In this document: positions 725-62,761 of the stretch, in pieces
Position numbering within the stretch: the first letter of the stretch is position 1
How the letters are laid out: each line of letters opens with the position of its first letter
From: Bacteroidales bacterium
GTDB lineage: Bacteria; Bacteroidota; Bacteroidia; Bacteroidales; GCA-2748055
NCBI GenBank assembly: GCA_040880545.1
Contig: JBBDIE010000175.1
Coordinates: forward strand, 6,569 to 70,568
Reading direction: 5' to 3'
DNA: 64,000 nucleotides
Notes under the pieces: model-generated
What the model saw: the letters and a program-made list of their open reading frames with translations, nothing else
Database searches by the model: none
What the model was told of the DNA's origin: nothing
Program-made: the position numbers and the translations under genes

Positions 725-746
725 TACGTACATATTATTTTTAATT

Positions 747-770
747 CCGGGGGAGTTATCCTCCCGGTTT
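747..770 (+). terminator. Weak hairpin plus TTT between the Ser-rich CDS and the OMP gene (possible attenuator or terminator)
   Basis: ccgggggag/ctcccgg stem with one bulged G, followed by ttt. The stem is short and the T-tract is short. Confidence 0.3.
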
Positions 771-790
771 CATAACGTAATTCGAAAAAA

Positions 791-2269: not shown

Positions 2270-2291
2270 TATTGATCTGTTATAAAATCAG

Positions 2292-2326
2292 CCCGGCAGA
2301 ATGAATAACTGCCGGGTTTGTTATTT
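2292..2326. terminator. Bidirectional intrinsic terminator between the convergent OMP and wbqC genes
   Basis: 8-bp GC-rich stem cccggcag (2292-2299) / ctgccggg (2309-2316), followed by tttgttattt. Confidence 0.6.
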
Positions 2327-2950: not shown

Positions 2951-2962
2951 GCTGAAAAGTGC

Positions 2963-4372: not shown

Positions 4373-4381
4373 TATCGCTGT

Positions 4382-5701: not shown

Positions 5702-5704
5702 CGG

Positions 5705-12072: not shown

Positions 12073-14250
12073 TTAAAGGTTCTCCAATATAAAATCGGTC
12101 ATTCTTGTATAAAGATGAAAGGTTGAATTTCCGCCATATATACCATGGCTTTTATTGGGATAAAAAAACATATCAAATTGTTTGTCGGCCTCCACAAGTG
12201 CTGATACAAAATCAACACTGTTCTGGAGATGCACATTGTCATCAGCTGTTCCATGGATCAGTAACAATTTACCTTTCAACTGACCGGCAAAATTAATGGG
12301 CGAATTATCATCATAACCATGGGGGTTTTCCCGGGGTGTGCGCATGAATCTTTCTGTGTATATGGTATCGTAATAGCGCCAGTTTGTTACAGGGGCGCCG
12401 GCAATTCCCATTTTAAACAAGCCGTTACCCTTGGTCAGACATAAACTGGTCATGAATCCTCCGTAACTCCATCCAAATATACCAATGCGTTTGCTGTCAA
12501 TATAATCCAGATCTCCCAGATAGGTTGCAGCCTCCACCTGGTCTATTGTCTCCAGATTACCCATTTGCAAATAGGTTGATTTTCTGAATTCTTCACCCCG
12601 TCCGTTGGTGCCCCTGTTATCAACACAGGCTACGATATATCCTTCCTGGACCAGCAACTGGAACCACGGGGACCGGCGGTTCCAACTGTCCACAACATTT
12701 TGTGATTCAGGTCCGCCATACACATAGATGAATAGTGGGTACTGCCGGGCAGGATCGAAATTGGCAGGTTTGATCATATAGCCATTCAGGTTCTGTCCGC
12801 TCACTGTTGGTACCTGCATGAATTCTATGGGTGAGAACCCGAACTCTTCGGTATTTCTTTTAAGTTCTGCATTGTCTTCCAGTATGCGTACCTGTTTCCC
12901 TTTCCTGTTATACAATGCATACACCGGGGGTGTATTGGCATTTGATCGGGAAAGGATGTAATAATCGAATGAGGAGCTGAACGTTGCACTATAACTTCCT
13001 GGTTCTCCGGAGATTTTCTTTTTCCCGGTTCCATCCATTTTAATGGAATAGAGATGAATTGTGGTAGAAGATTCTTCATAGGAGGTATAATAAACAATCC
13101 CTCGTTTTTTATCCACCCCCTGCAGGGAGGATATATCATATGCACCGCTTGTCACCGGGTGGGTCTCCCCGGTTATAAAATTATGCAGGTAAAAATGAAA
13201 ATAGCCATCCCTTTCACTGATCAGCAAAAATGATTTGTTATCTGGCAGATAAGTAACCATATTATCGGTTGCTTCCGAAATATATTTCTCATTATGTTCT
13301 TCATAAACAGCCTTAGTTTCGCCGTTTACTGCATTCCAATGCAATACTTTTACATGGTTCTGCAATCGATTCAGCCAGATAAGACTCAGCACTTCCGTAT
13401 CATTTGTCCATTTGATCCTGGGAATATAAAACTCTTCGTCATCCGGCAAACTGATGGTTGTTGTCCGGGAATTTTCAATTTCCAATACCCTGATGGAGAC
13501 ATCGCTGTTTGTTTCACCTGCCTTGGGGTACTTGAAGGTATAGGCTTCAGGATACAGGTCACCAAACATGGTCATGAAATATTCTTTAACCCTGGTCTCG
13601 TCAAACCTGTAATAGGCAATCTTTTTTCCGTCGGGCGACCATTTGAAACCATCGGCAAACCCAAATTCCTCTTCATATACCCAATCGGGGGCTCCGTTAA
13701 TTATTTCATTCTTCTTTCCATCAAATGTAACTTGCGTTTCATTTTTGGTTGCCAGTTCAGTAAGGTAGATATTATTCTCCCTGACAAAGGCCACGTGCCG
13801 GTTGTCGGGAGAAAAGGCCGCCAGTTGTTGTTTGCCTCCTGAGGACAAAACGGTCAATTCACCGTTCAGCATATTATAGATAAAGTATTCAGCCAAAAAT
13901 GACCGTCTGTAAATTCGCTCCACATTTGTGGTAAGTAGAATGAACTTCTCATCGGCACTGAATGTGTAGCTGCTGAATGAGTTTATATAGTCGTGATCAC
14001 TTGCATCAAAGAGGACAGCAGTTTGTTCACCATCGGCATAAGCATGTTTGTCAATGGTTTTGCCCCGGTTATTCACGGTATAATGTTTTCCGTCATTCAT
14101 TGAATTAATGCCCTGTACCGATCTGGAGCCAAAGATGTTTTCCCTGTATATATTGTCGAGCGTAATTTTTTTTGTCTGACTTTTAATCACCTGGGACGAA
14201 CTTGCTAACAGGCAGATAATAAGCAATATAGAAAAGTTGAGGTTCTTCAT
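12073..14250 (-). CDS. Dipeptidyl-peptidase IV (S9B family serine peptidase)
   Basis: Signal peptide, DPPIV N-terminal beta-propeller region, catalytic GWSYGGFMT, and later GTADDNVH and SHGI (Ser-Asp-His). Confidence 0.9.
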   Translation of the reverse strand: MKNLNFSILLIICLLASSSQVIKSQTKKITLDNIYRENIFGSRSVQGINSMNDGKHYTVNNRGKTIDKHAYADGEQTAVLFDASDHDYINSFSSYTFSADEKFILLTTNVERIYRRSFLAEYFIYNMLNGELTVLSSGGKQQLAAFSPDNRHVAFVRENNIYLTELATKNETQVTFDGKKNEIINGAPDWVYEEEFGFADGFKWSPDGKKIAYYRFDETRVKEYFMTMFGDLYPEAYTFKYPKAGETNSDVSIRVLEIENSRTTTISLPDDEEFYIPRIKWTNDTEVLSLIWLNRLQNHVKVLHWNAVNGETKAVYEEHNEKYISEATDNMVTYLPDNKSFLLISERDGYFHFYLHNFITGETHPVTSGAYDISSLQGVDKKRGIVYYTSYEESSTTIHLYSIKMDGTGKKKISGEPGSYSATFSSSFDYYILSRSNANTPPVYALYNRKGKQVRILEDNAELKRNTEEFGFSPIEFMQVPTVSGQNLNGYMIKPANFDPARQYPLFIYVYGGPESQNVVDSWNRRSPWFQLLVQEGYIVACVDNRGTNGRGEEFRKSTYLQMGNLETIDQVEAATYLGDLDYIDSKRIGIFGWSYGGFMTSLCLTKGNGLFKMGIAGAPVTNWRYYDTIYTERFMRTPRENPHGYDDNSPINFAGQLKGKLLLIHGTADDNVHLQNSVDFVSALVEADKQFDMFFYPNKSHGIYGGNSTFHLYTRMTDFILENL

Positions 14251-15606: not shown

Positions 15607-15631
15607 CAAATTTGATACAATAATAAAAATG

Positions 15632-15671
15632 AAAGCAACGAAATTCAATATTTTCGTTGCTTTTCTTTTTT
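15632..15671. terminator. Bidirectional terminator between tRNA-Leu and the convergent fucP
   Basis: 12-bp stem aaagcaacgaaa (15632-15643) / tttcgttgcttt (15652-15663). T-run on the plus strand and a T-rich tail on the minus strand. Confidence 0.65.
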
Positions 15672-15713: not shown

Positions 15714-17015
15714 TTATCCTGATTTAGGATGAATTTTTAATGTCCTGTAACCGTAGACAGCTATCACGATAAAGCTGATTAATGGCAGGATAAAGGAGAA
15801 GTTGACGGCCGGCATAGATCCTACAGTCCCTAAATCAATGATAGCGCCCTGTAAAGGGGGCATCAATGCACCACCAACAATGGCCATAACGAGTCCGGCC
15901 GCTCCAATGGTAGCATCTTCACCCAGTCCTTCGAGCGCAATTCCATAAATTGTAGGAAACATAAGTGACATGAATGCCGAAGTTGCTACGAGCAGATATA
16001 AACCGATCATCCCCTGGATAAGAATCACCCCTGCTATGGTAATCATGCCTCCTATGGCAAATATGGTAAGTAGTAACCGCGCGTTCATATATCTCATCAG
16101 CATTGTACTGATAAACCGGCTAAAGAGGAAAATCACCATGGCCACAATGTTATAGTTTTGGGCCGTTGCTTTTGGAATTCCCAGGTTATCAGCATAATGA
16201 ATGATAAATGTCCAGCACATAATTTGTGCCCCGACATAAAAAACCTGTGCAATCACACCTTCACGATACCCCATGTTTTTTATGAGTCTTTTAAAAATAT
16301 CAGATGTTCTTATGGAGTGATCGGCTTCAGCCCTTTTGGGCATTTTTGAAAAGGCAATGATAACGAGCATTATAATAACTACAAGTCCTAAAATGACATA
16401 CGGATCACGTATAATAGCAAGATCGTGTGTTCGAATGACTGCCTTTTCAGCATCTCCCAGGGTGTTGAAAATTAAATTACCTGCTGTATCCCTTTTATCG
16501 GAATCAAGGGCTGAAAGGATGAAGTTGGAAGCCACAAACATTCCCAAGAGTGACCCTACGGGGTTAAATGATTGTGCCAGGTTTAGTCTACGTGTGGCTG
16601 TTTTAGGTGATCCCATGGACAAGATGTAAGGATTTGCAGTTGTTTCCAAAAAAGCCAGTCCAAAAGTAAGGATATAAAGTGAAACCAGGAAAAAGCCGAA
16701 AAATTCGAACTTTGCAGCCGGGAAGAACAACAAAGCTCCGATGGCGTACAGTAACAATCCCACTAGAATTCCTTTTTTATAACTGAATTTTTTGACAAAC
16801 AGTGCTGCCGGAATGGCCATTGTGGCATACCCGCCATAAAATGCAAACTGCACCATCGCAGCCTTAACATTCTTTATTTCCATCACAGTTTGAAATGCTG
16901 CAACCATTGGGTTGGTGATATCATTGGCAAAACCCCATAATGCAAATAAACAGGTAATAAGTATAAAGGGTAATAACATCTCTTTTGAAACCACAACTTT
17001 ATCAGGATCTTTCAT
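15714..17015 (-). CDS. fucP: L-fucose:H+ symporter permease (MFS)
   Basis: 433 aa, 12 predicted TM segments. The FucP-type N-terminus LPFILITCLFALWGFANDITNPMVAAFQ. Confidence 0.88.
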   Translation of the reverse strand: MKDPDKVVVSKEMLLPFILITCLFALWGFANDITNPMVAAFQTVMEIKNVKAAMVQFAFYGGYATMAIPAALFVKKFSYKKGILVGLLLYAIGALLFFPAAKFEFFGFFLVSLYILTFGLAFLETTANPYILSMGSPKTATRRLNLAQSFNPVGSLLGMFVASNFILSALDSDKRDTAGNLIFNTLGDAEKAVIRTHDLAIIRDPYVILGLVVIIMLVIIAFSKMPKRAEADHSIRTSDIFKRLIKNMGYREGVIAQVFYVGAQIMCWTFIIHYADNLGIPKATAQNYNIVAMVIFLFSRFISTMLMRYMNARLLLTIFAIGGMITIAGVILIQGMIGLYLLVATSAFMSLMFPTIYGIALEGLGEDATIGAAGLVMAIVGGALMPPLQGAIIDLGTVGSMPAVNFSFILPLISFIVIAVYGYRTLKIHPKSG

Positions 17016-17108
17016 GTTTACTATATTGATTATTTTTTAATGTAATGATAAAAATGCAATATTAATTTTGAATTTGTACCTTGCTATTACCTGCCGTGTG
17101 ATATAATA

Positions 17109-18188
17109 CTATAGATATTGATCCTTATTTGTCTTTTTTAAATATTCCACGATTTTTTTTACATCTTCAGCTCTTTCACGATGGCAAACCAGAGTTGTGT
17201 TCCCGTCCTGCACTACTACCACATCATCGAGGCCTACCAGTGCAACCAGACCATTTTCAGCATGAACATATGAATTCGAAGTATCCAGAAAAACTGCCTC
17301 CGAAGATGAATAATTTCCACTTTCATTTTTTTCGCTTACCTTGTATACCGACTCCCAACTTCCCAAATCATTCCAATCAAAATTTCCCTCTACCATATAG
17401 ATATTTTGGGCGTTTTCCATAATTCCGTAATCAATCGAGATGCTCTCAACTTTACGATAAATGCTATCCAGTGTATGTTCGTAACCAGGCTTACCCATTT
17501 CTGTCTGAATTTCTCGCAGACAGTAGTACAGGTCCGGGGCAAATTCCTTTACTGCATCCAGAATCACAGATACTTTAAAGACAAACATACCACTGTTCCA
17601 GTAAAAACCTCCCATTTCAAGGTAGGAGACTGCAGTTTCATAATCGGGTTTCTCAACAAATTGTTCTACGGTAAACTGCCTGATTTTTCTATTACCCGTA
17701 ATTTCATTGTTAATCTTTACAAATCCGTAGCCGGTTGCCGGGTAAGTCGGGGTAATTCCTATGGTAACGATCCCGTTTTGATTTTCAGCTAAATTTACCG
17801 CCTCTAATATTGTTTCACTGAATATCTCATTATTCTTTATAAGATGATCAGATGGAGATACGATCATGATCCCGTCCGGATTTTCCTTTTGAGTAAACAT
17901 GGCAGCCAGACCAATGCATGGCAGTGTGTTTTTTCCCACGGGTTCGTATATCAGGTTTTTTTGGGGAATCTCAGGAGTCTGTTCTTCCAGAATTTGTTTT
18001 TGGTTCAGACTGGAAACGATGTAAATGTTCTCTGTTTCCAAAAAATTTTGAAACCGACGAACTGTGGATTGTAATAAAGATTCGTTGCCAAAGAGGTTTA
18101 AAAACTGCTTGGGTTTGGCTTGTTTACTTCGTGGCCAGAAACGAGTGCCTGAGCCACCAGCCATTATAAGACTATAGATATTTTTCAT
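17109..18188 (-). CDS. manC: Mannose-1-phosphate guanylyltransferase (GDP-hexose pyrophosphorylase, RmlA/GlmU fold)
   Basis: MAGGSGTRFWPRSKQAKPKQFLNL, EPVGKNTLPCI, SPSDH, FVEKPD. 359 aa, no PMI domain. Confidence 0.85.
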   Translation of the reverse strand: MKNIYSLIMAGGSGTRFWPRSKQAKPKQFLNLFGNESLLQSTVRRFQNFLETENIYIVSSLNQKQILEEQTPEIPQKNLIYEPVGKNTLPCIGLAAMFTQKENPDGIMIVSPSDHLIKNNEIFSETILEAVNLAENQNGIVTIGITPTYPATGYGFVKINNEITGNRKIRQFTVEQFVEKPDYETAVSYLEMGGFYWNSGMFVFKVSVILDAVKEFAPDLYYCLREIQTEMGKPGYEHTLDSIYRKVESISIDYGIMENAQNIYMVEGNFDWNDLGSWESVYKVSEKNESGNYSSSEAVFLDTSNSYVHAENGLVALVGLDDVVVVQDGNTTLVCHRERAEDVKKIVEYLKKTNKDQYL

Positions 18189-18260
18189 ATTTATGGGTTG
18201 AATCTGTTTCCCCGGGAATTAAATGATTGTGGAAAATTATAATGAAGAAAATCGGTTGGA

Positions 18261-19826
18261 CTATTTTAATTCAATTTTAAAGACAGTAGCCATCTCATCT
18301 ATAGATTCGTCAGTTGTAACAAGTTGTAATCCAGCATCTATAAGTTTATATTCAACTTTATTATGGCTCCCAAGCAATGTTACATTTTTTATGGCACGGT
18401 GGCTTGCCCATTCATCCTTGGAAAATGCAGTTAAAAGTATCTCGGAATTGGCCTTAGGGCTACCCAGAAGAATGGAATAAATTACATTCTCTTTCGTAGT
18501 ATACCGTATGTCTTTTGCTGAATATTTTATCTTCAGAAATTCCTCCCGATTGCTAAAATGACCCTCTGGTTCCTTGGTTGGTCCTTCGCCATAGGTATAC
18601 CATGGACGGGTTTCATATATAGATTCACCGTATTTATCCAGCCATTCCCCCATGGTTAGTAAAACATTTTGCTGCTCCTCGGGTATGGTACCGTCGGATT
18701 TTGGAGAAATATTAAGTAATAGTACTCCGTTTTTACTAACAATGTCGATTAAAACATGCAAGACATCCTCAGCCGGTTTAATTTGCAGATTTTCTGTATA
18801 ACACCAGCTTCCGGAACTGACAGTTTCGTCGGTCATCCATGCCTTTTCTTCAAGTCGATTTTTACGTGATTTCTCCAGGTCATCAACACTTACATCAAGC
18901 GGTAAATCATCTTGTTTCCTGACAATTACAACCTCTTTTCCCAACTTTTCTGCTTCATTCAGGTAATAGGCACAAAATTTAAGTTGGTACTCTTCTGGAA
19001 TCTGATCCAGCCAGGAATCAAACCAAATAATGTCAGGCTGATATTTATCAATCACCTCCTTCAATTTTCCGAACCATATATCTTCCAGCCATTCATTCTC
19101 AGGGATATTCCCATAAAGGTAATTCAGTTCTTCGTCATTGAGCGACGGTGGCATCCCTTCAAACAACGGATAATGACTATTCTGAAATGCTTTGCGCATG
19201 GGCCTGTCTATATCTGAGTGGAGCTTTTCGATTTCCTCTTGCTCTATTCCTTGATAGCGTTGCAGTTGTTTAGCATGGTGAAATGTTGTGATGAATTTTA
19301 ATCCCTGATCTCTGAACGCTTTTTCCATCTCGCCGGTAATATCACGCTGTGGGCCTTTTTTTCCTGCATTCCACGGCGTAACATCGCTGTCCCACATTGC
19401 AAAGCCATCGTGGTGTTCGGCAACCGGACCGGCAAAGCGGGCACCTGCTTTTTTAAATAGGGAGCTCCATTCTTCTGCATCAAATTCTTCTGCTGTGAAC
19501 ATCGGGACAAAATCATGATATCCAAATTCAGATGGGTGTCCATATTTTTCAAGGTGATGGACGTATTCATCAGTTCCTTCGAAATGCATCCAGCGGGGAT
19601 ACCATTCAGTGCCGAAAGCCGGGACCGAGTATACCCCCCAATGAAAATAGATTCCCAGTTTAGCATCCTTAAACCAACCGGGCTCTTCATTATGTTTTGC
19701 AAGTGATTCCCATGATTCCTCGTATTCGACTTGATTTTCTTGTTCATTAGAAGCTTTATTGCCTGAAATTCCACAACCAGTGAATGCGATCATTAATAGC
19801 AGGAGGCCCAAGGTTTTTATTTTCAT
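18261..19826 (-). CDS. Alpha-L-fucosidase, GH29 (lipoprotein)
   Basis: MKIKTLGLLLLMIAFTGC lipobox (ATG = cat at 19824-19826). WFKDAKLGIYFHWGVYSVPAFGTEWYPRWM, GPVAEHHDGFAMWDS, PDIIWFDSW (nucleophile Asp region). Confidence 0.9.
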   Translation of the reverse strand: MKIKTLGLLLLMIAFTGCGISGNKASNEQENQVEYEESWESLAKHNEEPGWFKDAKLGIYFHWGVYSVPAFGTEWYPRWMHFEGTDEYVHHLEKYGHPSEFGYHDFVPMFTAEEFDAEEWSSLFKKAGARFAGPVAEHHDGFAMWDSDVTPWNAGKKGPQRDITGEMEKAFRDQGLKFITTFHHAKQLQRYQGIEQEEIEKLHSDIDRPMRKAFQNSHYPLFEGMPPSLNDEELNYLYGNIPENEWLEDIWFGKLKEVIDKYQPDIIWFDSWLDQIPEEYQLKFCAYYLNEAEKLGKEVVIVRKQDDLPLDVSVDDLEKSRKNRLEEKAWMTDETVSSGSWCYTENLQIKPAEDVLHVLIDIVSKNGVLLLNISPKSDGTIPEEQQNVLLTMGEWLDKYGESIYETRPWYTYGEGPTKEPEGHFSNREEFLKIKYSAKDIRYTTKENVIYSILLGSPKANSEILLTAFSKDEWASHRAIKNVTLLGSHNKVEYKLIDAGLQLVTTDESIDEMATVFKIELK

Positions 19827-20088
19827 CAGTTTGATATTAGTTACTGAGTGCTTGCAAGAAAATGTCAATAGCTGCGTTATGCTCGACTTCAAAACAGTCA
19901 TCGCAATCCCCTGTTAAAGAACTGGGCAGCCATTGCTCTTGACGTTTTCTTATCAAATACTACATCGTTTTATGAGTTTTCTTTCTAACACTACTTGTAA
20001 GTTTCAGTTAAATAATAAACTCTGTATTAAAACACTTATAAATCAATGCCATATTATTCTTTGTACAATGATGCCACCTTTGGCAATC

Positions 20089-20442
20089 TCATTTGTCTTC
20101 AAGTTTATAAATTCGTTCCATTAATTGCCACTTGTTTCCCGCTGTTGTGCCAGGTGATGTTTTCTGAAATCGTGCAACATAATCTTCCCACTCACTCTGC
20201 CTGGGTTTTAAGGCTAGCTCAGCCATTGCTTTATCATGATCAAAATCATTAACTGTTTCCATGATCATAAATAACCTGTTTCCGTGAATATATATCTCCA
20301 TGTCTGTTATACCCACTTCACGCATTCCCTGGGTTATATCGGGCCATGCCGCTCTAGGAGCATGGACCTTTATATATTCTCTTATAGTAGGGGGATCATC
20401 TTCTAAATCAAGTGTTTTGCAATATCTTTTGAATGTCGTCAT
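20089..20442 (-). CDS. L-rhamnose mutarotase (RhaM) family protein, probable L-6-deoxyhexose/L-hexose mutarotase
   Basis: 117 aa ferredoxin-like dimeric alpha/beta-barrel pattern. EYIKVHA..WPDI...MREVGITDMEIY..GNRLFMIME resembles RhaM. Confidence 0.75.
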   Translation of the reverse strand: MTTFKRYCKTLDLEDDPPTIREYIKVHAPRAAWPDITQGMREVGITDMEIYIHGNRLFMIMETVNDFDHDKAMAELALKPRQSEWEDYVARFQKTSPGTTAGNKWQLMERIYKLEDK

Positions 20443-20476
20443 ATCTTTTTAAAAAGTAGAAGTTAGTTTGGAACGA

Positions 20477-21613
20477 TTAATACCTGACTTTCACTTTAAT
20501 GGTACCTTCAATTTTGTCTGATGAAGGAAATACTATATAACCCCCACCACTACCAGAGGTAATCGCACCAGAATATTTTGTAAAATAATTTGTTTTCACT
20601 TCTTCCATTACCCAGTCAGGAACTGTATATGGCAACATTTCACTCCATGCCAGGAATGACTCTTTCATTGATTCACCTAGTTTTTGAACATCTTTTTTTA
20701 ATATGGCTTCGTAACATTTTTTCCCAGATTCCCCCAATTTTTTGATCAATGCCGGTTCCAGGTTTTTTTTCAGTAAAGGATTATATCCTTTGGGACGTGG
20801 TTGCAACGGAACAAAATTCAAAACTTCAGAAAGCCACTCACACGTATCCGGGTCGGCAGTGTTTTCAATATTTCCGGGCCAGAAATCACCAACATAATCC
20901 AGTCTTGAAATTCCCGGCACCATGAGTCCTATATGATCCTGTGAACCTGAGATATATTCAGATCCCGGAGGATTTTCAGCGCCAAAAAGCAATTGGGCAT
21001 TTCGTATCGGATCTCCTTCCGGAACATCCCCTCCCCACAATTCATAGGCAACTTTTCGGGAACTGGACGCCATGCCAGATCGGCCGTTAAAGTCAATGTT
21101 TGGCCATATCTGAGCTACAACGACAGATCCAGGATGTATTTGAGAAATCCAGGGTTGATCCAGCCAGCCACCTGCCAGACATACCCGATAGGGGAATTGA
21201 AGTTCTTGCTTGGATGCAGAACTGGAACGTGGAGGTAAACCTTCTTCAGGCATTCGTTCTAAAACAACCAGTTCCACACCGTTTTCTTTGCAGACCCTCT
21301 TTTTATCCGGCGTATATCCATCGGTATTTACTACGAAGATATCAGGTTTCAGCGATTTCATATCGGGTTCAAAATCCATTACCCCTTTTCCTGATGCAAG
21401 ATGGGCTTCCTCCACGAATTTGATGGAATCGATCATATACTTGCGCTCTACCTGTGAAAAATAGGGAGATTTGCCCTTCAGCATTTTCACATTTTCGTCC
21501 TGTCCAAGAAAAACATGGAGTTTACCATAGCTCGCCGCTGTCTTTAGAAAGGCTATGTGTCCTGCATGTATTAAGTCGAAACAGCCGCTAACCATTACAG
21601 TTTTGTTTCTCAT
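20477..21613 (-). CDS. Fusion protein: HxGH cytidylyl/adenylyl-type nucleotidyltransferase (N-terminal) plus GHMP-family sugar kinase-like domain (C-terminal)
   Basis: N-terminal VSGCFDLIHAGHIAFL (HxGH, as in TagD/RfaE domain II) and PPRSSSASK (RTxGISTT-like). C-terminal LAGGWLDQPW, GRSGMASSS (GHMP motif II-like), GSQDHIG (GxQDQ-like in fucokinase/HddA kinases) and SGSGGGYIVF (motif III-like). Confidence 0.65.
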   Translation of the reverse strand: MRNKTVMVSGCFDLIHAGHIAFLKTAASYGKLHVFLGQDENVKMLKGKSPYFSQVERKYMIDSIKFVEEAHLASGKGVMDFEPDMKSLKPDIFVVNTDGYTPDKKRVCKENGVELVVLERMPEEGLPPRSSSASKQELQFPYRVCLAGGWLDQPWISQIHPGSVVVAQIWPNIDFNGRSGMASSSRKVAYELWGGDVPEGDPIRNAQLLFGAENPPGSEYISGSQDHIGLMVPGISRLDYVGDFWPGNIENTADPDTCEWLSEVLNFVPLQPRPKGYNPLLKKNLEPALIKKLGESGKKCYEAILKKDVQKLGESMKESFLAWSEMLPYTVPDWVMEEVKTNYFTKYSGAITSGSGGGYIVFPSSDKIEGTIKVKVRY

Positions 21614-21705
21614 GTACTACTCATTTTTGGTCAATGATTTTTAACATACAATTTGATTAAAAACCTGGCCTTGAAACCTTGGGTCAATTTGATGAATCAA
21701 GTGGG

Positions 21706-22695
21706 TCAACTAACTAAGCTTTTTTCTTCTTTTGATATCATTTGTTCCTTGATCCAATCGTATGTTTTTTTCATCCCGTCTTTTAAAGGATATATTGGCG
21801 CCCAATTTAAATATTTCTTAATCAGGGTATTTTCGCTGTTTCTGCCACGTACACCTTTCGGCGCATCCAAATCATAAGTTCGCTTAAGTTTGAATCCTGC
21901 GATATCTTCAACGATATCCACCAGTTCATTAATGGAAACCATTTCATCACTTCCCAGGTTGATTGGTTCTTCGATGTCGCTTTCCATTATTTTCAAGATA
22001 CCTTCAACACATTCATCGATATACATGAACGAACGGGTCTGTTCCCCGTCTCCCCATATTATGATTTCATCTTTTCCATACAATTCCCCTTCAATAATTT
22101 TACGGCACATTGCTGCAGGAGCCTTTTCACGACCGCCATCGTACGTTCCATGAGGACCGTAAACATTATGGAAACGGGCAACCCTGGTTGCTAATCCATA
22201 ATCTTCCATATAGTGACGGCACATTCGTTCGGAAAATAATTTTTCCCAACCATATCCGTCCTCTGCCATAGCAGGATATGCATCTGGTTCTTTTAATCCC
22301 GGATTGTTGGGGTCGGTTTGTTTCTCTGCGTTGTATACACAGGCTGATGAAGCATAAAAAAATCGCGTCACCCCCAGATCTTTAGCAGCCATTAACATGT
22401 GTGTATTTATAAGTACACTCAACATACACTCCGCTTTATGCGTTTCAATAAAGCCCATACCACCCATATCAGCCGCCAGATTATAAACTTCATTGTAACC
22501 ATTTACGGCTGTATAACAATTTTCTTTGACATTCAGGTCAAGCACAAGATTATCACAGCCGGAGTGAACCTGGTACCATTCAGTAAGCGGTTTTTTGTCC
22601 ACAGCACGAACGTGATGCCCCATATCGCTTAGTTTTCGAGCCAGATGCCCGGCTATAAAGCCACCCGCACCTGTTACAACAATTCTTTTTTGCAT
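21706..22695 (-). CDS. gme: GDP-mannose 3,5-epimerase homologue (extended SDR)
   Basis: Collinear similarity to plant GME as I recall it: VTGAGGFIAGH, NLAADMGGMGFI, RFFYASSACVY, YGWEKL, RFHNVYGP.GT..GGREKAPAA.CRK, WGDG.QTRSF.YIDECVEG, GSDEMVSINE, GVRGRNS.N.LIK..L.WAP. Confidence 0.85.
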   Translation of the reverse strand: MQKRIVVTGAGGFIAGHLARKLSDMGHHVRAVDKKPLTEWYQVHSGCDNLVLDLNVKENCYTAVNGYNEVYNLAADMGGMGFIETHKAECMLSVLINTHMLMAAKDLGVTRFFYASSACVYNAEKQTDPNNPGLKEPDAYPAMAEDGYGWEKLFSERMCRHYMEDYGLATRVARFHNVYGPHGTYDGGREKAPAAMCRKIIEGELYGKDEIIIWGDGEQTRSFMYIDECVEGILKIMESDIEEPINLGSDEMVSINELVDIVEDIAGFKLKRTYDLDAPKGVRGRNSENTLIKKYLNWAPIYPLKDGMKKTYDWIKEQMISKEEKSLVS

Positions 22696-22780: not shown

Positions 22781-22835
22781 CGCAAAGGTTACCGCAAAGC
22801 TTTGCGGTAAATTAAAGATGTTACATAACATAAAA
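22781..22835. promoter_or_regulatory. Conserved bipartite palindromic element, copy 1 (candidate LacI-family operator plus second inverted repeat)
   Basis: Perfect 22-bp palindrome ttaccgcaaagctttgcggtaa (22789-22810), preceded by half-site cgcaaagg. 10 nt after GCGG comes atgtta-ca-taacat (22818-22831). About 95 bp upstream of the gme start. Confidence 0.5.
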
Positions 22836-22871: not shown

Positions 22872-25124
22872 CTACTCTTCAACGGTAAATCGCCAGATTT
22901 TTCCTTTGATTTTTTTTGTTCCCTGGATTACGTCCACCCGCCAAAAGTACGTTTCACAAAAATTCAGTTGATCCATTTCCAGAATATTGGAATCAAGGAC
23001 TCCCTGGTATTCATTACTTACGGGACTCGCTTCATTAACCGCTTTGTAACTATTTCCAAAGTACACTTCATGGCTGTCAGCTTTATATCCTTCTAACCAC
23101 ATTAAATCAGCATCTATATCAATTGAAATGGCTACGTTTGGTGGTATCGGATTAGAAGCTTGTTGTGATTGTCGTCCAGGAATCCAGTAATGTCCATTAT
23201 TAGTTTCGTATGGACCGATATCTGGTAAAACATTCCCTGTTTTTCCTGTAATTCCATCTATATAATAGCCTGCATCGTTTAATCTACTCTCTGTGGATAA
23301 TCGGAAATCCAGATTATCAGGATCACGGAGCTGCGACCTTACGTCACCGGTCCAGTTATTGGAATGTTTGCCGGGTAATCCATTTGAAGGGGATCTCAAA
23401 TTACTGGATATTTGGCCTGCCAGGTTATTCCTGGTAATACTGTTATCATTTTCTCCCGGATGATCAATTCCCGGCCCCCATCCCTGGTAATTAAAACCTT
23501 TCAGTGGATCTTTCGGGACCGGGTTTCCAACTGCAGAACGTATGGCTATATCATTCCTTAAATTGTCAAAGGAAAGATTGTGATACACTAACTGAGAATC
23601 TCCCTTTACATACATGGACCTGGTATCCCATACTACATTGTGGTGAATTGTACCTCCATGGGGAAAATCCCTGGCGCCTGCCAGGTATCCGATAAAAGAT
23701 CCGTCGAAACGTACCCCGTATTTCGGATCATCATCAAAACGACTAGCCTGGGCTGATTCATGTAACCAATTATATCTGATTACGGTTCCCGGTTGCGCCG
23801 ATCCACTGACCTGAATAAGCGCTCCATCTGATTGCAGGTACCCAATATCGAAAATATTATTATATTCTATCAGGTTTGCGGGACCGGATCTGTATCCAAC
23901 AGAGGCCCCTCCGGTATGGATCGTATTCCTACGAAATATAGTTTCGACCCCTTCTCCTCCATCTACAGTTACAGCATCTCCAACACAGCTGTAATTGATC
24001 TCATGGAAATAGCAATTTTCTATCAGGTTTCTTTCCCCCCTGATTTTCAGTCCTGTTCCATCGGTGTATGCAAACGTACAGTTCCGGAGTGTATTCTCTA
24101 TACCATCAATGGTTGTAACTTCTGGTTCCTCAGTAACCCCAAGCATTCTTTTGGAATAGCTCGGGTATTTAAAATCACAATCCTCTATGGAAACATGATT
24201 TGCGCTTTCGATATGAAATGTTGACCCAAAAAAGTGTAATCCTGATATTTTGAGATATTCGCTGTTTTCAAAATGCAGAGCATAAGTCAGTGTTTTGCCT
24301 CTGATATCCAGGTTTTCCGGCGATTCGTTATCAGATGGCCATATGTATAACTCCTTTGAGTCAGCCTGATACACCCATTCTGTGGCAGTATCCAACATGT
24401 TAAGGGAACCCTCAAAAAAGTACCATCCTGTCTCTTTTCTCATTTCCCAATAGACATCCTGTGCCAATCGATCCCAAAGATTTTTCTCATATGTAAATGT
24501 ATTGGATCCTTTCTTGTGACTGGTTACTCTTGTCGCAAAGGTATTCCATGCACCAATATTTAACATAACCAAAGCGTTGGTGAAGTCAACATCCGCTTGA
24601 GCCAGATCTCTGAAATCATGGTCATTGACCATTTTCCCATATTGCGATTGATCAGATTGATGGGCCCATGTTTTTTCCTGATCAAACATTGCCCCGTCCT
24701 TCCACTGTGCATTTGGCCAGCGGGCCGATATCATTGATTCGTTACCAACAAACAACTGCCAGATTTCATCGTTAAGACGAGTCTTAACGATATGTCCCTT
24801 ATGGGAATTCCAAACGCTTTTAATTTCCTTAGTACCATCAAGAATGACATGCTCATTATTAAAAGGGAGTATCGTAATTTGTTTATTTTCCAGACCTTTA
24901 AGATTCGAAATATGTACAGCTTCATGATATCTTCCTCCTCGCAGGTAACAAGTATCTCCTGCTTTTAATTGCTTCACAGCATGTTGGATCGTTTTAAATG
25001 GTTGCTCCAAACTTCCGGAGCCAGAATCGTCACCATTGGGGGCTACGTAATATTCCTTGCTATACAAATCGCTGGTGCCAACCAATATGATGCAGAGTAA
25101 AATAATTGAATACGACCTGGTCAT
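22872..25124 (-). CDS. Secreted right-handed parallel beta-helix protein (pectate-lyase-fold glycan-degrading enzyme candidate) with a C-terminal ~90-aa beta-sandwich-like domain
   Basis: Signal peptide. DUF1565-like start YYVAPNGDDSGSGSLEQPFKTIQHAVKQLKAGDTCYLRGGRY. Repeated beta-helix coils (NCTF..., NCYFH..., RNTIH...). C-terminal ...SHEVYFGNSYKAVNEA...TYFWRVDV...WRFTV. ATG at 25124 chosen. Confidence 0.7.
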   Translation of the reverse strand: MTRSYSIILLCIILVGTSDLYSKEYYVAPNGDDSGSGSLEQPFKTIQHAVKQLKAGDTCYLRGGRYHEAVHISNLKGLENKQITILPFNNEHVILDGTKEIKSVWNSHKGHIVKTRLNDEIWQLFVGNESMISARWPNAQWKDGAMFDQEKTWAHQSDQSQYGKMVNDHDFRDLAQADVDFTNALVMLNIGAWNTFATRVTSHKKGSNTFTYEKNLWDRLAQDVYWEMRKETGWYFFEGSLNMLDTATEWVYQADSKELYIWPSDNESPENLDIRGKTLTYALHFENSEYLKISGLHFFGSTFHIESANHVSIEDCDFKYPSYSKRMLGVTEEPEVTTIDGIENTLRNCTFAYTDGTGLKIRGERNLIENCYFHEINYSCVGDAVTVDGGEGVETIFRRNTIHTGGASVGYRSGPANLIEYNNIFDIGYLQSDGALIQVSGSAQPGTVIRYNWLHESAQASRFDDDPKYGVRFDGSFIGYLAGARDFPHGGTIHHNVVWDTRSMYVKGDSQLVYHNLSFDNLRNDIAIRSAVGNPVPKDPLKGFNYQGWGPGIDHPGENDNSITRNNLAGQISSNLRSPSNGLPGKHSNNWTGDVRSQLRDPDNLDFRLSTESRLNDAGYYIDGITGKTGNVLPDIGPYETNNGHYWIPGRQSQQASNPIPPNVAISIDIDADLMWLEGYKADSHEVYFGNSYKAVNEASPVSNEYQGVLDSNILEMDQLNFCETYFWRVDVIQGTKKIKGKIWRFTVEE

Positions 25125-25382
25125 AATTATATTTTTATTTGGTTTTATGCTAAAATTCAGACAACAGAACTCTAATTGAACTTTTTGGTTCATTTGCATT
25201 CCAAGGCTTTCCTGAATATTACATTGCGATAATTTAATCGCTGTGTAACTTAGAATTTTACTATTTTAAAATAAGAACTACCAAACACATTGATTGGAAT
25301 TTTCCGAGGGCTCAGCAGTTCTGATGTTAACTTGATTCGTTATATATTAATTGTCAATTTTTCTGAGAATAGATGGATATTG

Positions 25383-26909
25383 TTATTTCAGAATTAACTT
25401 TTGCGTTTCAGAATAACCTTCCCCCTTCATTCTCATGAGGTACATTCCATTTTCTAGATGTGTCAAATCTATTGTCTCTTTAAAGTAGTCGTTTGCCTGA
25501 AATTCTCTTGAGAGTATCTGGGCACCGGTGATACTAAATACTTCTAATCGTAATGTACCGATTTCATTTCCTGCGTATTCAATTGTTAAAATGCCCTGAC
25601 TGGGATTTGGATAAACTTGGGGTATAATTGAATGTGACAGCGGTATACTTGAAGTTCCTGTAAGTTGCCAACGTTGATCACCTAATTGAAGACCATCAGT
25701 GGCTGCTGTGGCAGATCTTAAATTCCTATCATATCCAAAATCAATATCGTTCAGGTCTTCCAATGCGTATTGATTTGGCGGAGACAGGGCTGCAATATCA
25801 AAATTGTTCTCAACCAGATACTGCCAGTATTCAAGATTAAGTGCCGGCGGACTGGTAAAATTAATTGCTTCACTAAAAAAATTAGTAGTATCAACCTGGG
25901 AATTTTCAATAAAAGCAAGGAAATTGGGAGGGGTCTCAGGATTGGCAGCAAGTACATCAGGGTCGGCGAAAATATTGGTACGTATATTGTACATTTCGTC
26001 AGATCTGAATTCTAACAATACATCTGAAATATCAGATTGTGTATGCCAATTATTGTTACTCAGATCGAAAGACCTCAGATTGTCATCCACCCCAATTGAA
26101 TCAACTGTAAAGAGCACATCGTGACTACCCGCCACTGCCAGGTATGCAAAATTATAGAATATATTATTTGTTACAATAGCCTTAACAGTCATTCCCAAAT
26201 CAAAATAGACATCATTTAAATAATTGGATTGATAATATGTATTGTGACTGAAGTTAAGCACATTTGTAACACTTGCCATTCTTAGGAAAAGCGGTCCGTC
26301 ACAATTATAAAAAGTAGTATTTTCAATGGATAAAGTATCCTGCGGCCTGGCAAGTGTATTGATGATGGAAGGAAAGCCCGGGTCCTCAAATACCAGACCA
26401 TTAATAAAAACTGAATTTGTCACATAAACTTTACTGCCATTACTTGTACGAATAAAGTCCTTTCCAACAAATTCGAAAACACAATCATCGACATTTAATC
26501 TCAGATCATTGTCTGCGAGCCGGATAGCTTGTACCAAAACGGTTGAATCCAGCGCTTTTTGATTAAACTTCAGTCCTTCCACTACTAGGTGTCCCGTTAC
26601 TTCGAAGTGTCTTTTGTAACTGTCATCTATGCCTACAATTACAGGCCGTGCACCATCTCCTTGCTCTGCCCTGATATGGAGCGTATTATCCAGGGAAGAA
26701 ATCTTATTGTTCAATACATAAGTACCTCCTCTTCGTAACTCAAAGATGGTGTTACCAGGATTATCTTCACTGTCAATAGCTATGTTAAGCGCACCTGCCT
26801 CACCTTCCAGATCCGGTTCTACAACTATTACCGTTTTTTGCCCAAAGGCTGGCAGGCACATTAAAAACAGTCCCATTGTTAAAAGCATGTAAATTTTTTT
26901 CATAATCAT
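25383..26909 (-). CDS. T9SS-sorted secreted protein with a beta-helix-like body
   Basis: Signal peptide MKKIYMLLTMGLFLMCLPAFGQ. C-terminal VYPNPSQGILTIEY...LEVFSITGAQIL...IDLTHLENGMYLMRMKGEGYSETQKLILK matches the type A Por/T9SS sorting domain pattern. Confidence 0.75.
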   Translation of the reverse strand: MIMKKIYMLLTMGLFLMCLPAFGQKTVIVVEPDLEGEAGALNIAIDSEDNPGNTIFELRRGGTYVLNNKISSLDNTLHIRAEQGDGARPVIVGIDDSYKRHFEVTGHLVVEGLKFNQKALDSTVLVQAIRLADNDLRLNVDDCVFEFVGKDFIRTSNGSKVYVTNSVFINGLVFEDPGFPSIINTLARPQDTLSIENTTFYNCDGPLFLRMASVTNVLNFSHNTYYQSNYLNDVYFDLGMTVKAIVTNNIFYNFAYLAVAGSHDVLFTVDSIGVDDNLRSFDLSNNNWHTQSDISDVLLEFRSDEMYNIRTNIFADPDVLAANPETPPNFLAFIENSQVDTTNFFSEAINFTSPPALNLEYWQYLVENNFDIAALSPPNQYALEDLNDIDFGYDRNLRSATAATDGLQLGDQRWQLTGTSSIPLSHSIIPQVYPNPSQGILTIEYAGNEIGTLRLEVFSITGAQILSREFQANDYFKETIDLTHLENGMYLMRMKGEGYSETQKLILK

Positions 26910-27115: not shown

Positions 27116-27171
27116 CCGCAAAGCTTTGTGCAAAGCTTTGCGGAATTGAAAAGATGTTGAATAACATAAAA
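27116..27171. promoter_or_regulatory. Conserved bipartite palindromic element, copy 2
   Basis: ccgCAAAGCTTTGtgCAAAGCTTTGcgg (27116-27143). 10 nt later comes atgtt-gaat-aacat (27154-27167). About 205 bp upstream of the T9SS protein start. Confidence 0.5.
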
Positions 27172-30534: not shown

Positions 30535-31836
30535 TCAAAACACAAAATCTAAACTTATTCCTGCAGTATCCAACTGGCTCTTGATGGTTTTTGTCTGCCC
30601 CATGGCAGTAACTGTGATATCATAATCACCTAAAAATCCACGTAGATTATACTTTCCATTTGCATCAGTTTCTCCGGCAAGATCGGTCCACCATTGGTTA
30701 AAAACAAGGTCCAACCATGCCTCACCTGCCGGTTTAATGGTCCAGTCTGAATTCCAAAGCGTTGTATTGTTGGCACCTCCTCCCCAGATTTGCCACATGA
30801 CAATACCAGAAACAGCGGGGTGACTATAAGCAATGGTCATCACATCGTGCAAATATTCAGCTTGAAGCTGCTGATCAGCAACATTTATATCAAATTCGGT
30901 TAGCTGAAGGTTAGGCACCAGTTCCGCAAATCTGTCCAGCCTTTCATAAATTTTATCCATACTGATAAGATCGCTCTCTTGTTTAAAATGACTCATGAAA
31001 CCAATACCATCCGGTGTACCACCATATTCAAGAAGCTTTCTGATTTGTGCTATATACTTGTCCTGGCGCGATCCATCACCCGGTAAAATACTGCCTTCGT
31101 TTACCCAAAATTCCACACCGGGAGGAGCATGTTCACGGGCATGTTTGATAACGTCTGCGAAAAATGATGGACCAAAAAGGTGGTCGTAGCCCAGATGGTC
31201 AGATATATCAGTTACAATGTGATTGATAGCATCCCATTCTGAAATACGATTTCCCGCCCAGGTTACCATCTCCTCAATATACTGGAAGGCGATCTCTTTT
31301 AGCTCATTTGTGTCCGCAGGCATTACATCTGGCTGTCCACGTCTGTCCTCATCTTCAATCTGAATGCGAGCCCACATTAAATAGTGGCCACGAACTTCAA
31401 TTCCCCGTTCTTTCAACCAGTCGAGCTGAATATCTCCCACCTCGTTGTTATGGGCTCCAACAACTAGTTTGTTGAAATATTTCTCCACAAGTTCCCGGCA
31501 AAGACGGGCATCTTCAGGATTAGGTTTATCTTCCCATCTTGACTGACCCATCAATGCACCAAAACCAAAAGCATGTTTAGACATCTTTACCGCAACTTCA
31601 GCATCAGGCACAGGTTCTCCTGAAATATCTGAAACAGTAATTTTTATGTCTGATTTGCGATGTATCTCAATTCTCTCTTTTGCAGATTTTAACCATTCCG
31701 GATCATTGTCAACCATATTGGTGGTGTCGTTTTTGATAGTGTCGTTGGCAACGATGGGCTCTTTGAGAGTAGGAGGAGTGGTCTTTTCACAGGACACCAT
31801 CGCTAAAGAGACCATTGCCATGATAATATAATTCAT
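30535..31836 (-). CDS. GH10-like (beta/alpha)8 glycoside hydrolase-fold lipoprotein, atypical active site, paralogue A
   Basis: Lipobox (AMVSC). GH10 landmarks in order: HAFGFG, VRGHYLMW, WDAINH (in place of WDVVNE), WVNEG, GIGFMSHF, LQLTEFDI (nucleophile motif), IVMWQIW. C-terminal Ig-like tail. Confidence 0.7.
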   Translation of the reverse strand: MNYIIMAMVSLAMVSCEKTTPPTLKEPIVANDTIKNDTTNMVDNDPEWLKSAKERIEIHRKSDIKITVSDISGEPVPDAEVAVKMSKHAFGFGALMGQSRWEDKPNPEDARLCRELVEKYFNKLVVGAHNNEVGDIQLDWLKERGIEVRGHYLMWARIQIEDEDRRGQPDVMPADTNELKEIAFQYIEEMVTWAGNRISEWDAINHIVTDISDHLGYDHLFGPSFFADVIKHAREHAPPGVEFWVNEGSILPGDGSRQDKYIAQIRKLLEYGGTPDGIGFMSHFKQESDLISMDKIYERLDRFAELVPNLQLTEFDINVADQQLQAEYLHDVMTIAYSHPAVSGIVMWQIWGGGANNTTLWNSDWTIKPAGEAWLDLVFNQWWTDLAGETDANGKYNLRGFLGDYDITVTAMGQTKTIKSQLDTAGISLDFVF

Positions 31837-62523: not shown

Positions 62524-62580
62524 CCGCAAAGCTTTCCGCAAAGCTTTGCGTTAATAAAAACATGTTGAAAAACATAAAAA
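62524..62580. promoter_or_regulatory. Conserved bipartite palindromic element, copy 3 (in the susC / lacI-family divergent region)
   Basis: ccgCAAAGCTTTccgCAAAGCTTTGcg (62524-62550). 10 nt later comes atgtt-gaaa-aacat (62562-62575). About 215 bp upstream of the regulator ATG and about 540 bp upstream of susC. Confidence 0.5.
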
Positions 62581-62761
62581 AGAGGATAACTATAATTATA
62601 AGTTGATTTTTTCACTTTTTTTATTAAAATCTTCAAGCGATTCAAAATTTATATTTTATTTGGAAGATCTATTTATTTGTCCGTCAGATTTTCATAAGAT
62701 GACTCCACTTGCCAATACGGGAATTCTTTGTTATACCTGCAAGGTCATATCTAAAAATTAC

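Follow-up and report, generated by a model that had tools for sequence, protein, structure and literature searches.

A LacI-linked Bacteroidales gene module predicted to use L-galactose through a Leloir-like route on GDP-sugars

A six-gene module is found in a Bacteroidales bacterium, in a stretch of 64,000 nucleotides (positions 6,569 to 70,568 of contig JBBDIE010000175.1, assembly GCA_040880545.1; this whole stretch is called the window). It encodes a GDP-mannose 3,5-epimerase homologue (GME), a nucleotidyltransferase fused to a kinase (the fusion), a RhaM-type mutarotase, a lipoprotein of glycoside hydrolase family 29 (GH29), a ManC-type mannose-1-phosphate guanylyltransferase and a FucP-type permease. 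Several described sugar pathways share features with it. Like the Leloir pathway (GalM, GalK, GalT and GalE), the module combines a mutarotase, a GHMP-type anomeric kinase, a nucleotide-sugar, a short-chain dehydrogenase/reductase (SDR) epimerase and a common hexose-1-phosphate, with the nucleotide being recycled. It differs in its predicted L-hexose substrate, in the use of GDP rather than UDP, in having a 3,5-epimerase instead of a 4-epimerase, and in a mutarotase of the RhaM rather than the GalM type. HIT-type GalT is missing as well, and two pyrophosphorylase-type enzymes would activate and release the sugar. As neither HIT-type GalT nor 4-epimerase domains were found among the six proteins with Pfam and NCBIfam, the module is Leloir-like in its logic and not a member of that pathway.

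The plant Smirnoff-Wheeler pathway (GMP/VTC1, GME and VTC2) uses homologous ManC-type and GME enzymes and the intermediates GDP-mannose, GDP-L-galactose and L-galactose-1-phosphate. The original prediction, made from the letters of the window, described the module as these steps run in reverse for catabolism. This was upheld for the homologous enzymes (51% identity for GME) and the intermediates; it did not extend to VTC2, since no homologue of this HIT-family enzyme is present, or to the phosphatase, since a kinase would here produce the L-galactose-1-phosphate that a phosphatase consumes in plants. Fkp of Bacteroides likewise joins a kinase and a sugar-1-phosphate nucleotidyltransferase in one polypeptide, and its kinase domain is the nearest solved relative of that of the fusion. 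The fusion is much smaller (378 versus ~950 aa), has a HIGH/cytidylyltransferase fold (PF01467) instead of a ManC/GlmU-like one and a compact kinase of ~245 aa, and is encoded with GME in a repressor-controlled utilisation operon. Fkp has already been employed to produce GDP-L-galactose (PMC8787198).

L-galactose catabolism was described in 2025 only as oxidative, with citation of the Bacteroides vulgatus enzymes (PMC12632266). The oxidative pathway (B. vulgatus; Luteolibacter LG18, PMC12632266) has the same predicted substrate as the module, and in sister species an enzyme set of this kind stands under the LacI and operator of the module. Its enzymes are unrelated to those of the module, and it ends in D-tagaturonate and the hexuronate route rather than in mannose phosphates. 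Bacterial GME has been linked to lipopolysaccharide (PMC8787198). The Methylacidiphilum fumariolicum enzyme, from the same family, was discussed for lipopolysaccharide and L-sugar synthesis (PMC6678494; PMC8787198), whereas the module GME lies in a utilisation operon. Full-text literature searches found no bacterial route by which L-galactose or L-fucose is catabolised through nucleotide-sugars, no GME in a polysaccharide utilisation locus (PUL) and no paper joining GDP-L-galactose with polysaccharide utilisation. This agrees with the original prediction, which had considered a nucleotide-sugar module attached to a PUL to be an undescribed catabolic route.

The module would thus represent a Leloir-type nucleotide-sugar pathway assembled from known enzyme superfamilies. 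With a little more confidence than an even chance would give, its six genes are interpreted as the periplasmic and cytoplasmic end of a regulon for L-galactose utilisation that LacI represses, working in a Leloir-like manner on GDP-sugars, the enzymatic steps being predicted from homology and context. The evidence consists of the protein-family identities, a gene linkage that is conserved in other genomes, and a shared operator.

The six genes and their protein families

The original prediction placed six co-directional genes at 15714-22695. All of them were found there on the minus strand, with intergenic gaps of 92, 34, 262, 72 and 93 bp:

21706-22695, minus strand: GME, GDP-mannose 3,5-epimerase homologue (329 aa; PDB 2C59/8SG0, E=1e-103)
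20477-21613, minus strand: predicted nucleotidyltransferase::GHMP kinase fusion (378 aa)
21215-21613, minus strand: fusion, N-terminal HxGH (cytidylyltransferase-like) nucleotidyltransferase domain (residues ~1-133; PF01467)
20477-21214, minus strand: fusion, predicted C-terminal compact GHMP-type sugar 1-kinase domain (residues ~134-378 and stop codon; family profile against PDB)
20089-20442, minus strand: RhaM-family mutarotase (117 aa; PF05336, E=1.5e-27)
18261-19901, minus strand: open reading frame (ORF) of the GH29 lipoprotein, predicted alpha-L-fucosidase or alpha-L-galactosidase, likely start 19826 (PF01120, 336 bits)
17109-18188, minus strand: ManC-type mannose-1-phosphate guanylyltransferase, apparently without phosphomannose isomerase (PMI) domain (359 aa; PF00483 and PF22640)
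15714-17015, minus strand: FucP-type symporter, predicted for L-fucose or L-galactose with H+ (433 aa; TIGR00885)
15631-15664, unstranded: bidirectional terminator-like hairpin that closes the operon

Unrelated genes lie beyond the 3' end of the module (a PKD protein, dipeptidyl peptidase IV, a radical SAM protein, ThrRS and IF3). Assignment by profile hidden Markov models and, for the fusion, structure prediction, which the original prediction had proposed as a check, agreed with its identities, and all six functional assignments were borne out by Pfam, NCBIfam and PDB matches, with a family profile serving for the GHMP half of the fusion.

GME is 51% identical to the Arabidopsis thaliana enzyme over 323 residues, and its best PDB matches are the solved plant GDP-mannose 3,5-epimerases (E=1e-103). 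GME is distinguished from GDP-fucose synthase and GalE by a catalytic Cys together with the Arg that acidifies it, a catalytic Lys in place of His, and the Tyr-x3-Lys motif of SDR enzymes (PMC8787198). All of these are kept in the window protein. The catalytic acid Cys (C145 in A. thaliana) is found in YASSACVY, aligned with YASSACIY of 2C59, and the catalytic base Lys (K217; His in GDP-fucose synthase) in GGREKAPAA, which is the same in both proteins. The Cys-acidifying Arg (R306; Lys in GMER) is found in GVRGRNS, and the SDR motif reads YGWEK as compared to YGLEK in 2C59. By identity and catalytic residues the protein belongs to the GDP-mannose 3,5-epimerase family, as originally proposed, and interconversion of GDP-D-mannose and GDP-L-galactose is predicted for it. 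The equilibrium of plant GME favours GDP-mannose, which fits the catabolic direction.

The N-terminal third of the fusion matches PF01467 at 49.1 bits against a cut-off of 21. It contains an HAGH motif at residues 16-19, of which H16, G18 and H19 are invariant across 29 sequences. Its top models are those of heptose-1-phosphate adenylyltransferase and glycerol-3-phosphate cytidylyltransferase (TIGR02199, rfaE domain II, E=1e-13), and Foldseek matched it to 3GLV and HldC. The C-terminal two thirds (residues 134-378) gave no match in Pfam, NCBIfam or a single-sequence PDB search, the window protein missing the gathering scores of Pfam GHMP_kinases_N and GHMP_kinases_C; the relatives P0148 (29.1 bits) and P0127 (23.6 bits) pass that of PF08544 (GHMP_kinases_C; 21 bits). 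An exhaustive search for the kinase domain gave 528 cluster representatives, some stand-alone at ~240 aa and others fusions, and a profile was built from 25 of them. When compared with the PDB, this profile found the L-fucokinase domain of Bacteroides Fkp first (9IIP, 5YYS and 9IIT; E=8e-16 to 2e-14), followed by heptose GHMP kinases (E=4e-12 to 1e-8) and mevalonate kinases. The window protein has the motifs RSGMASSS, GSQD and SGSGGGY (family consensus RSGMA(T/S)S(T/S)R, GSQD and GAGGGGY); the first and last of them are near-invariant among the 25 family members and answer to GHMP motif II (PxGSGLGSSA-like) and motif III (GAGGGG-like). The profile match and the motifs therefore indicate that the label of HxGH nucleotidyltransferase::GHMP-kinase fusion given in the original prediction was right, although the GHMP half is visible only to the family profile and not to standard domain libraries. 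In an AlphaFold model of moderate confidence (predicted local distance difference test 66.7), Foldseek found both fold classes, with 9IIP at E=4.8e-6; matches of this kind were taken as secondary support only.

The fusion is predicted to be an analogue of Fkp and not a member of its family, because its N-terminal half is of the PF01467 CTP_transf_like type and does not have the ManC/GlmU-like NTP_transferase fold. It would bring a new domain architecture to the kinase/pyrophosphorylase step. Further architectures occur among its relatives: P0130 joins RhaM, nucleotidyltransferase and kinase in one protein, and in other cases the kinase domain is fused to GDP-mannose 4,6-dehydratase or to a family 2 glycosyltransferase (GT2).

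The mutarotase, GH29 lipoprotein, guanylyltransferase and permease of the original prediction were recognised as well (PF05336, PF01120, PF00483/PF22640 and TIGR00885, respectively). From the likely start at 19826, the lipoprotein signal of the GH29 protein is MKIKTLGLLLLMIAFTGC. The nearest solved structure is an exo-alpha-L-galactosidase (7LJJ/7LK7/7LNP and 7SNK; E=1e-104, 40% identity), and we take 7LJJ to be BpGH29 of the Bacteroides plebeius porphyran PUL reported by Robb et al. in 2022. In four loci the neighbouring GH29 shares 50-52% identity with the exo-alpha-L-galactosidase. Membership of the module GH29 in the catalytic family is assigned by homology, and specificity as a fucosidase or galactosidase is a prediction only. 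ManC scores 150 bits against PF00483 and 64 bits against PF22640, and it matches the Thermotoga maritima guanylyltransferase 2X5S (E=5.5e-74). Its match to TIGR01479 (330 bits, below the cut-off of 373) ends at profile position 352 of 467, and the PMI domain therefore appears to be absent, as expected of the typical short GDP-mannose pyrophosphorylase that ManC is predicted to be. FucP reaches 594 bits against the TIGR00885 equivalog (cut-off 280), which assigns it to the L-fucose:H+ symporter family; transport of L-galactose is predicted.

Conservation, predicted operator and the oxidative counterpart

Comparative genomics of the gme, fusion, fucP and manC block had been suggested in the original prediction. 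A genome scan with the single fusion protein gave no match; an alignment-based scan found relatives in 411 species genomes, and the best 80 of the 411 were taken for analysis of their loci. These are mostly Prolixibacteraceae (Draconibacterium, Maribellus, Mariniphaga, Tangfeifania and Sunxiuqinia), together with metagenome-assembled genomes (MAGs) labelled Ignavibacteria, Melioribacter, Odoribacter or Porphyromonadaceae. Mapping of the window proteins and clustering of ORFs across the 80 loci found GME, LacI, ManC, GH29, RhaM and FucP as the only recurrent neighbours of the fusion. GME is directly upstream in 65 of the 69 loci with enough sequence. Where 7 kb of downstream sequence was available (53 loci), ManC was found in 35, GH29 in 33, RhaM in 20, FucP in 13, sulfatases in three and SusC/D in one. 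No glycosyltransferase, flippase, polymerase or capsule gene recurred near the module in the 80 loci, and the make-up is therefore that of a utilisation operon. The block is thus conserved, and because it recurs in dozens of genomes the gene set of the module is not due to chance. Its usual form elsewhere is a compact operon beside the regulator, in the order LacI, operator, GME, fusion and variably ManC, FucP, RhaM and GH29.

The regulator and the operators of the window are as follows:

62709-63818, plus strand: LacI-family repressor, predicted regulator of the whole system (PF00356 and Peripla_BP domains)
62525-62550, unstranded: predicted double operator, a pair of overlapping palindromes in the gap that separates LacI from the first SusC gene
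27117-27142, unstranded: predicted double operator ahead of the genes for a type IX secretion system (T9SS) tail protein and a beta-helix protein (22872-26909)
22793-22806, unstranded: predicted operator palindrome CGCAAAGCTTTGCG, ~100 bp upstream of GME (copy 1 of the original prediction)

The predicted LacI operator has the sequence GCAAASCTTTGC. With up to two mismatches, CGCAAAGCTTTGCG has five matches in the window as compared to 0.1 expected by chance. Among the loci of other genomes, 52 of 66 have an operator-like site no more than 400 bp ahead of GME, and 94 of the 110 matches in the 1.28 Mb of the 80 loci are within this distance. LacI orthologues (56-77% identity) stand divergently beside GME in other genomes, and an orthologue with at least 50% identity to the window LacI is upstream of GME-fusion in 38 of 59 loci. 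The palindrome is likely the LacI operator, its binding and effector being predicted. Since copies precede GME, the genes at 22872-26909 and the PUL, all three are predicted to form one regulon. The module does lie directly downstream of copy 1, as first described, and this element is now the predicted link between module and PUL. The attachment to a sulfatase and GH29 PUL applies here, through the shared operator; elsewhere it is rare, as the three sulfatase-bearing loci among 53 indicate. In the relative CAZIOB01, the GME operon and an operator-preceded cluster with a GH29 and a sulfatase gene are on separate contigs (L272, L289 in our locus numbering); this GH29 and this sulfatase are 74-79% identical to GH29a and Sulf541 of the window.

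A scan for the double operator GCAAASCTTTGCGNAAASCTTTGC in one genome per species gave 108 stretches, nearly all from Bacteroidota. About half of them precede GME-fusion operons. In ~30 other assemblies, the double operator and a divergent LacI (59-63% identical to that of the window) are found before genes for RhaM, an aldo-keto reductase (AKR), a lactonase and a Zn-dehydrogenase. The carriers are Draconibacterium sediminis, D. mangrovi, Mangrovibacterium, Sunxiuqinia dokdonensis, Gaoshiqia, Maribellus maritimus, Thermophagus, Echinicola and several Hymenobacter. The PDB matches of the operator-linked AKR are exclusively L-galactose dehydrogenases, the lactonase is an Amidohydro_2 protein that matches the L-fucono-1,5-lactonase model, and the Zn-dehydrogenase is 30% identical over its full length to the Escherichia coli L-galactonate oxidoreductase LgoD. 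Enzymes of these types make up the oxidative L-galactose pathway that B. vulgatus reportedly encodes in BVU_0219, BVU_0220 and BVU_0222 (Hobbs et al. 2014). BVU_0219 clusters with plant L-galactose dehydrogenase (PMC12632266).

Comparison of assembly accessions showed that no sampled assembly carries both modules, and tblastn of the three oxidative enzymes gave no match in the 80 fusion loci. Both module types occur within the single genera Draconibacterium, Maribellus and Sunxiuqinia. The pattern looks like non-orthologous displacement inside one regulon. That one LacI/operator system stands over either module, without overlap in the sample, is the strongest argument for GME-fusion(-ManC) as a catabolic alternative for L-galactose.

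Other operator targets are GH29, GH2, GH97, SusC and Gfo/Idh/MocA oxidoreductases. The latter carry twin-arginine translocation signals and in many relatives stand by the operator or the GME operon, often in two to three tandem copies (L241, L242, L257, L273, L299 and L300); their matches to the NCBIfam BT_2158 glycoside 3-dehydrogenase family fall short of its cut-off. In freshwater Prolixibacteraceae and Bacteroidia MAGs (L053, L067, L071 and L081-L092), the L-fucose isomerase gene FucI and a gene for a 793-aa thiamine pyrophosphate-enzyme-like protein adjoin the LacI-FucP-RhaM-GME-fusion genes, convergent with LacI. FucI was considered as a member of the LacI regulon and rejected, having no operator-like site upstream. 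In two Bacteroidales MAGs (L070 and L077), large proteins that resemble GH95 and GH3 by eye only flank GME-fusion, a glycoside hydrolase set unlike that of the window. The GH95 family includes both alpha-L-fucosidases and alpha-L-galactosidases.

Proposed route and competing explanations

In the proposed L-galactose route, the GH29 lipoprotein would act with the upstream GH29s and the sulfatases to free alpha-L-galactose, and L-fucose too, and FucP would take up the released sugar. The RhaM-type mutarotase would then give the beta-anomer, a step that makes sense because retaining GH29 enzymes free the alpha-anomer, whereas it is the beta-anomer on which Fkp-type kinases act. In the fusion, the C-terminal GHMP domain would form beta-L-galactose-1-phosphate, which the fused HxGH nucleotidyltransferase, or else ManC, would convert to GDP-beta-L-galactose, GDP being the presumed choice of nucleotide. 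Epimerisation at C3 and C5 by GME would give GDP-alpha-D-mannose, from which the ManC-type enzyme, presumably working in the direction of pyrophosphorolysis, would release mannose-1-phosphate and GTP. Housekeeping phosphomannomutase and mannose-6-phosphate isomerase would lead on to fructose-6-phosphate, and the net cost of the route would be one ATP. The original prediction had suggested this funnel from import, anomer setting and 1-phosphorylation through NDP/GDP activation to GDP-mannose and mannose-1-phosphate. It gains support from the conserved LacI operon without glycosyltransferases, the alternation with the oxidative module, the GME residues and the Fkp-like kinase.

Several observations weigh against the L-galactose route. 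ManC adjoins the fusion in only 35 of 53 loci, and neither phosphomannomutase nor mannose-6-phosphate isomerase recurs in the operon or among its neighbours in the 80 loci or is found among the regulon members in the operator scan loci. HIGH-type nucleotidyltransferases typically use CTP or ATP, and use of GTP by the fusion is therefore an assumption. The idea that the module GH29 (GH29c) is the sole L-galactosidase-like GH29 was rejected, as all three window GH29s are 36-40% identical to BpGH29 (36-38% for the other two). The GH29 region around BpGH29 is not isofunctional (PMC11189522). The apparent exclusivity of the two modules comes from operator-proximal loci and the best 80 of 411 hits rather than whole genomes. 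A hybrid operon also exists in uncultured Draconibacterium sp. X8 (L249; NZ_CANLMQ010000015.1, ~621-6254), in the order LacI, double operator, AKR, lactonase, Zn-dehydrogenase, ManC and FucP, and the proposed role of ManC does not explain it. The GH29s and sulfatases of the PUL would suit fucoidan, the sugar of which is L-fucose, no less than they would a sulfated L-galactan. Finally, GT2, GT4 and exosortase genes are neighbours of distant fusion relatives (~40% identity; L166 and L167).

These distant relatives come from a scan with a generic HxGH pattern; only ~14 of its 80 loci were usable, the majority holding unrelated cytidylyltransferases. In a Verrucomicrobiae MAG (L167, 6978-12162) a full fusion follows a GT2 gene and is linked with GME. 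In a Rectinemataceae MAG (L175, 3472-9820), a stand-alone kinase is near GME, FucI and a gene for a 341-aa protein with a weak cytidylyltransferase match. The two arrangements differ, and the context of the kinase family therefore varies between lineages. The position among glycosyltransferases indicates that a salvage role is real for the wider family, and salvage is the main rival explanation of the module. As in Fkp-like salvage, imported L-fucose, L-galactose or both would be converted to the corresponding GDP-sugars, for use in glycans that the cell itself makes, and GME and ManC would balance or replenish the GDP-L-galactose and GDP-mannose pools. The kinase domain is nearest to the fucokinase domain of Fkp, the union of kinase and nucleotidyltransferase in one protein follows the logic of Fkp, and distant family members are near GT2, GT4 and exosortase genes or fused with GT2 and GDP-mannose 4,6-dehydratase. 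Bacterial GME has hitherto been tied to lipopolysaccharide synthesis (PMC8787198). Such a role is nevertheless considered unlikely here, if clearly not negligible: the 80 loci contain no conserved glycosyltransferase, flippase or polymerase near the module, a LacI-type repressor governs it, its permease, mutarotase and secreted GH29 included, and in the window a whole PUL as well, and the same regulator stands over a purely catabolic oxidative pathway in sister species. Moreover, the equilibrium of plant GME would pull salvaged GDP-L-galactose to GDP-mannose.

L-galactose is 6-hydroxy-L-fucose, and the permease, mutarotase, GH29 and Fkp-like kinase therefore cannot discriminate between the two sugars. 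The predicted product of the epimerase would be GDP-D-rhamnose from L-fucose and GDP-mannose from L-galactose; we know of no catabolic exit for GDP-D-rhamnose or D-rhamnose-1-phosphate. In the locus samples, FucI (NCBIfam equivalog, 1085 bits) is present in at least eight module-bearing assemblies. L-fucose is thus served by a separate route in these assemblies, a point in favour of L-galactose as the module's substrate, and the same co-occurrence led to rejection of the module as a general replacement of classical fucose catabolism. A route through L-fucose-1-phosphate and GDP-L-fucose, which the GME homologue would turn into GDP-D-rhamnose or a 4-keto intermediate for further enzymes, is thus regarded as improbable: it would lack a known entry to central metabolism and further conserved enzymes nearby, and the alternating oxidative module has a Zn-dehydrogenase related to L-galactonate oxidoreductase, not a fuconate dehydratase. 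It draws on the score of FucP as an L-fucose permease equivalog, the likeness of the GH29s and sulfatases to fucoidan loci, the position of FucI beside the module in the freshwater clade, and the content of the window. The window has no FucI homologue, and no scanned ORF was assigned to another fucose-catabolic family. The scans covered ORFs of at least 150 aa in 4382-63818 and the 117-aa RhaM, but not 13294-13842 (overlapping), the nested 19298-19774 or four ORFs in 179-4372. The original prediction had recognised no known fucose-catabolic enzyme in the window; this was confirmed for FucI, while for FucK, FucA and the fuconate-pathway enzymes, none of which turned up in the general Pfam scans, it follows from assignment of the ORFs to other families, no query-sequence search having been made for them. 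The reported absence of the Bacteroides L-galactose dehydrogenase route was also verified, tblastn of the three oxidative enzymes giving no homologue in the window.

A different nucleotide or division of labour is rated as similarly doubtful. Here, the HxGH domain would make a CDP- or ADP-L-sugar that serves another purpose, or ManC would activate L-galactose-1-phosphate and the HxGH domain would carry out the release. Such variants are suggested by the best matches of the N-terminal domain, to heptose-1-phosphate adenylyltransferase and glycerol-3-phosphate cytidylyltransferase models, and by the ManC-type fold of the Fkp pyrophosphorylase domain (structures 5YYS/9IIT). They are opposed by the 51% identity of the GME homologue to GDP-specific plant enzymes and by the pairing of GME with the fusion even in loci where ManC is not adjacent.

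The surrounding locus and significance

All genes between 61987 and 15714 are on the minus strand, and the LacI gene at 62709-63818 is divergent. The ~40 kb between LacI and GME are occupied by a SusC/D-sulfatase locus and the T9SS-tail and beta-helix genes:

27352-61987, minus strand: PUL body (Pfam scans)
49982-52168, minus strand: second large beta-helix protein (728 aa)
25383-26909, minus strand: T9SS-sorted protein (508 aa; no further recognised domain)
22872-25199, minus strand: beta-helix protein (775 aa; best PDB match E=5e-9 over ~100 residues, no close solved relative)

The PUL body encodes two SusC/D pairs, ~9 sulfatases, two GH29s (three in the locus when that of the module is counted), two GH10-like proteins, a beta-helix protein, a nucleoside-hydrolase-like protein, a purple acid phosphatase and a secreted RraA-like protein. 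The GH10-like proteins are encoded in tandem (30535-31836 and 31901-33199, minus strand) and have weak GH10 matches (~90 bits) in a PUL that otherwise has only GH29s and sulfatases; they may be endo-acting enzymes of an undescribed kind that cleave sulfated fucan or L-galactan. The RraA-like/HMG-CHA aldolase-family protein (PF03737; 34810-35625, minus strand), likewise within the PUL, has a clear N-terminal signal peptide, MKMKIICFVSLFIVCYISMYSQ. This family is normally cytoplasmic, and a secreted member is unusual. The Sde182 nucleoside-hydrolase-like protein and the purple acid phosphatase (42660-43748 and 45354-46700, respectively, minus strand) sit among the sulfatases.

Taken together, there is about an even chance that many Bacteroidota, and some Verrucomicrobiota, Spirochaetota and Ignavibacteriota, break L-galactose down to D-mannose phosphate through a Leloir-like GDP-sugar route at the cost of one ATP, as a non-orthologous replacement of the oxidative pathway in a conserved LacI regulon, and that in this bacterium the regulon has been expanded by a ~35-kb sulfatase and GH29 PUL, perhaps for sulfated L-galactans or L-galactose-bearing fucans. 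If true, this would be a third route for L-galactose, both described ones that were found (B. vulgatus and Luteolibacter) being oxidative. GDP-mannose 3,5-epimerase, so far discussed for ascorbate, cell-wall and lipopolysaccharide synthesis, would gain its first catabolic role, and a Leloir-type nucleotide-sugar pathway would convert an L-sugar to a D-sugar without redox cost. The alternation within the regulon offers testable pairs of isolates inside single genera: the GME type is represented by Draconibacterium aestuarii Z1-6, Tangfeifania diversioriginum DSM 27063 and Maribellus sp. YY47, and the oxidative type by D. sediminis JN14CK-3, D. mangrovi GM2-18, Sunxiuqinia dokdonensis DH1 and Maribellus maritimus 5E3. 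A small bifunctional enzyme and bacterial epimerases would become available for the production of GDP-L-galactose and related L-sugar nucleotides. The route would bear on the mineralisation of L-galactose-containing glycans from algae, invertebrates and plants by marine and sediment bacteria, and it would give a function to a family that is annotated only as 'adenylyltransferase/cytidyltransferase family protein' and is present in 411 species genomes.

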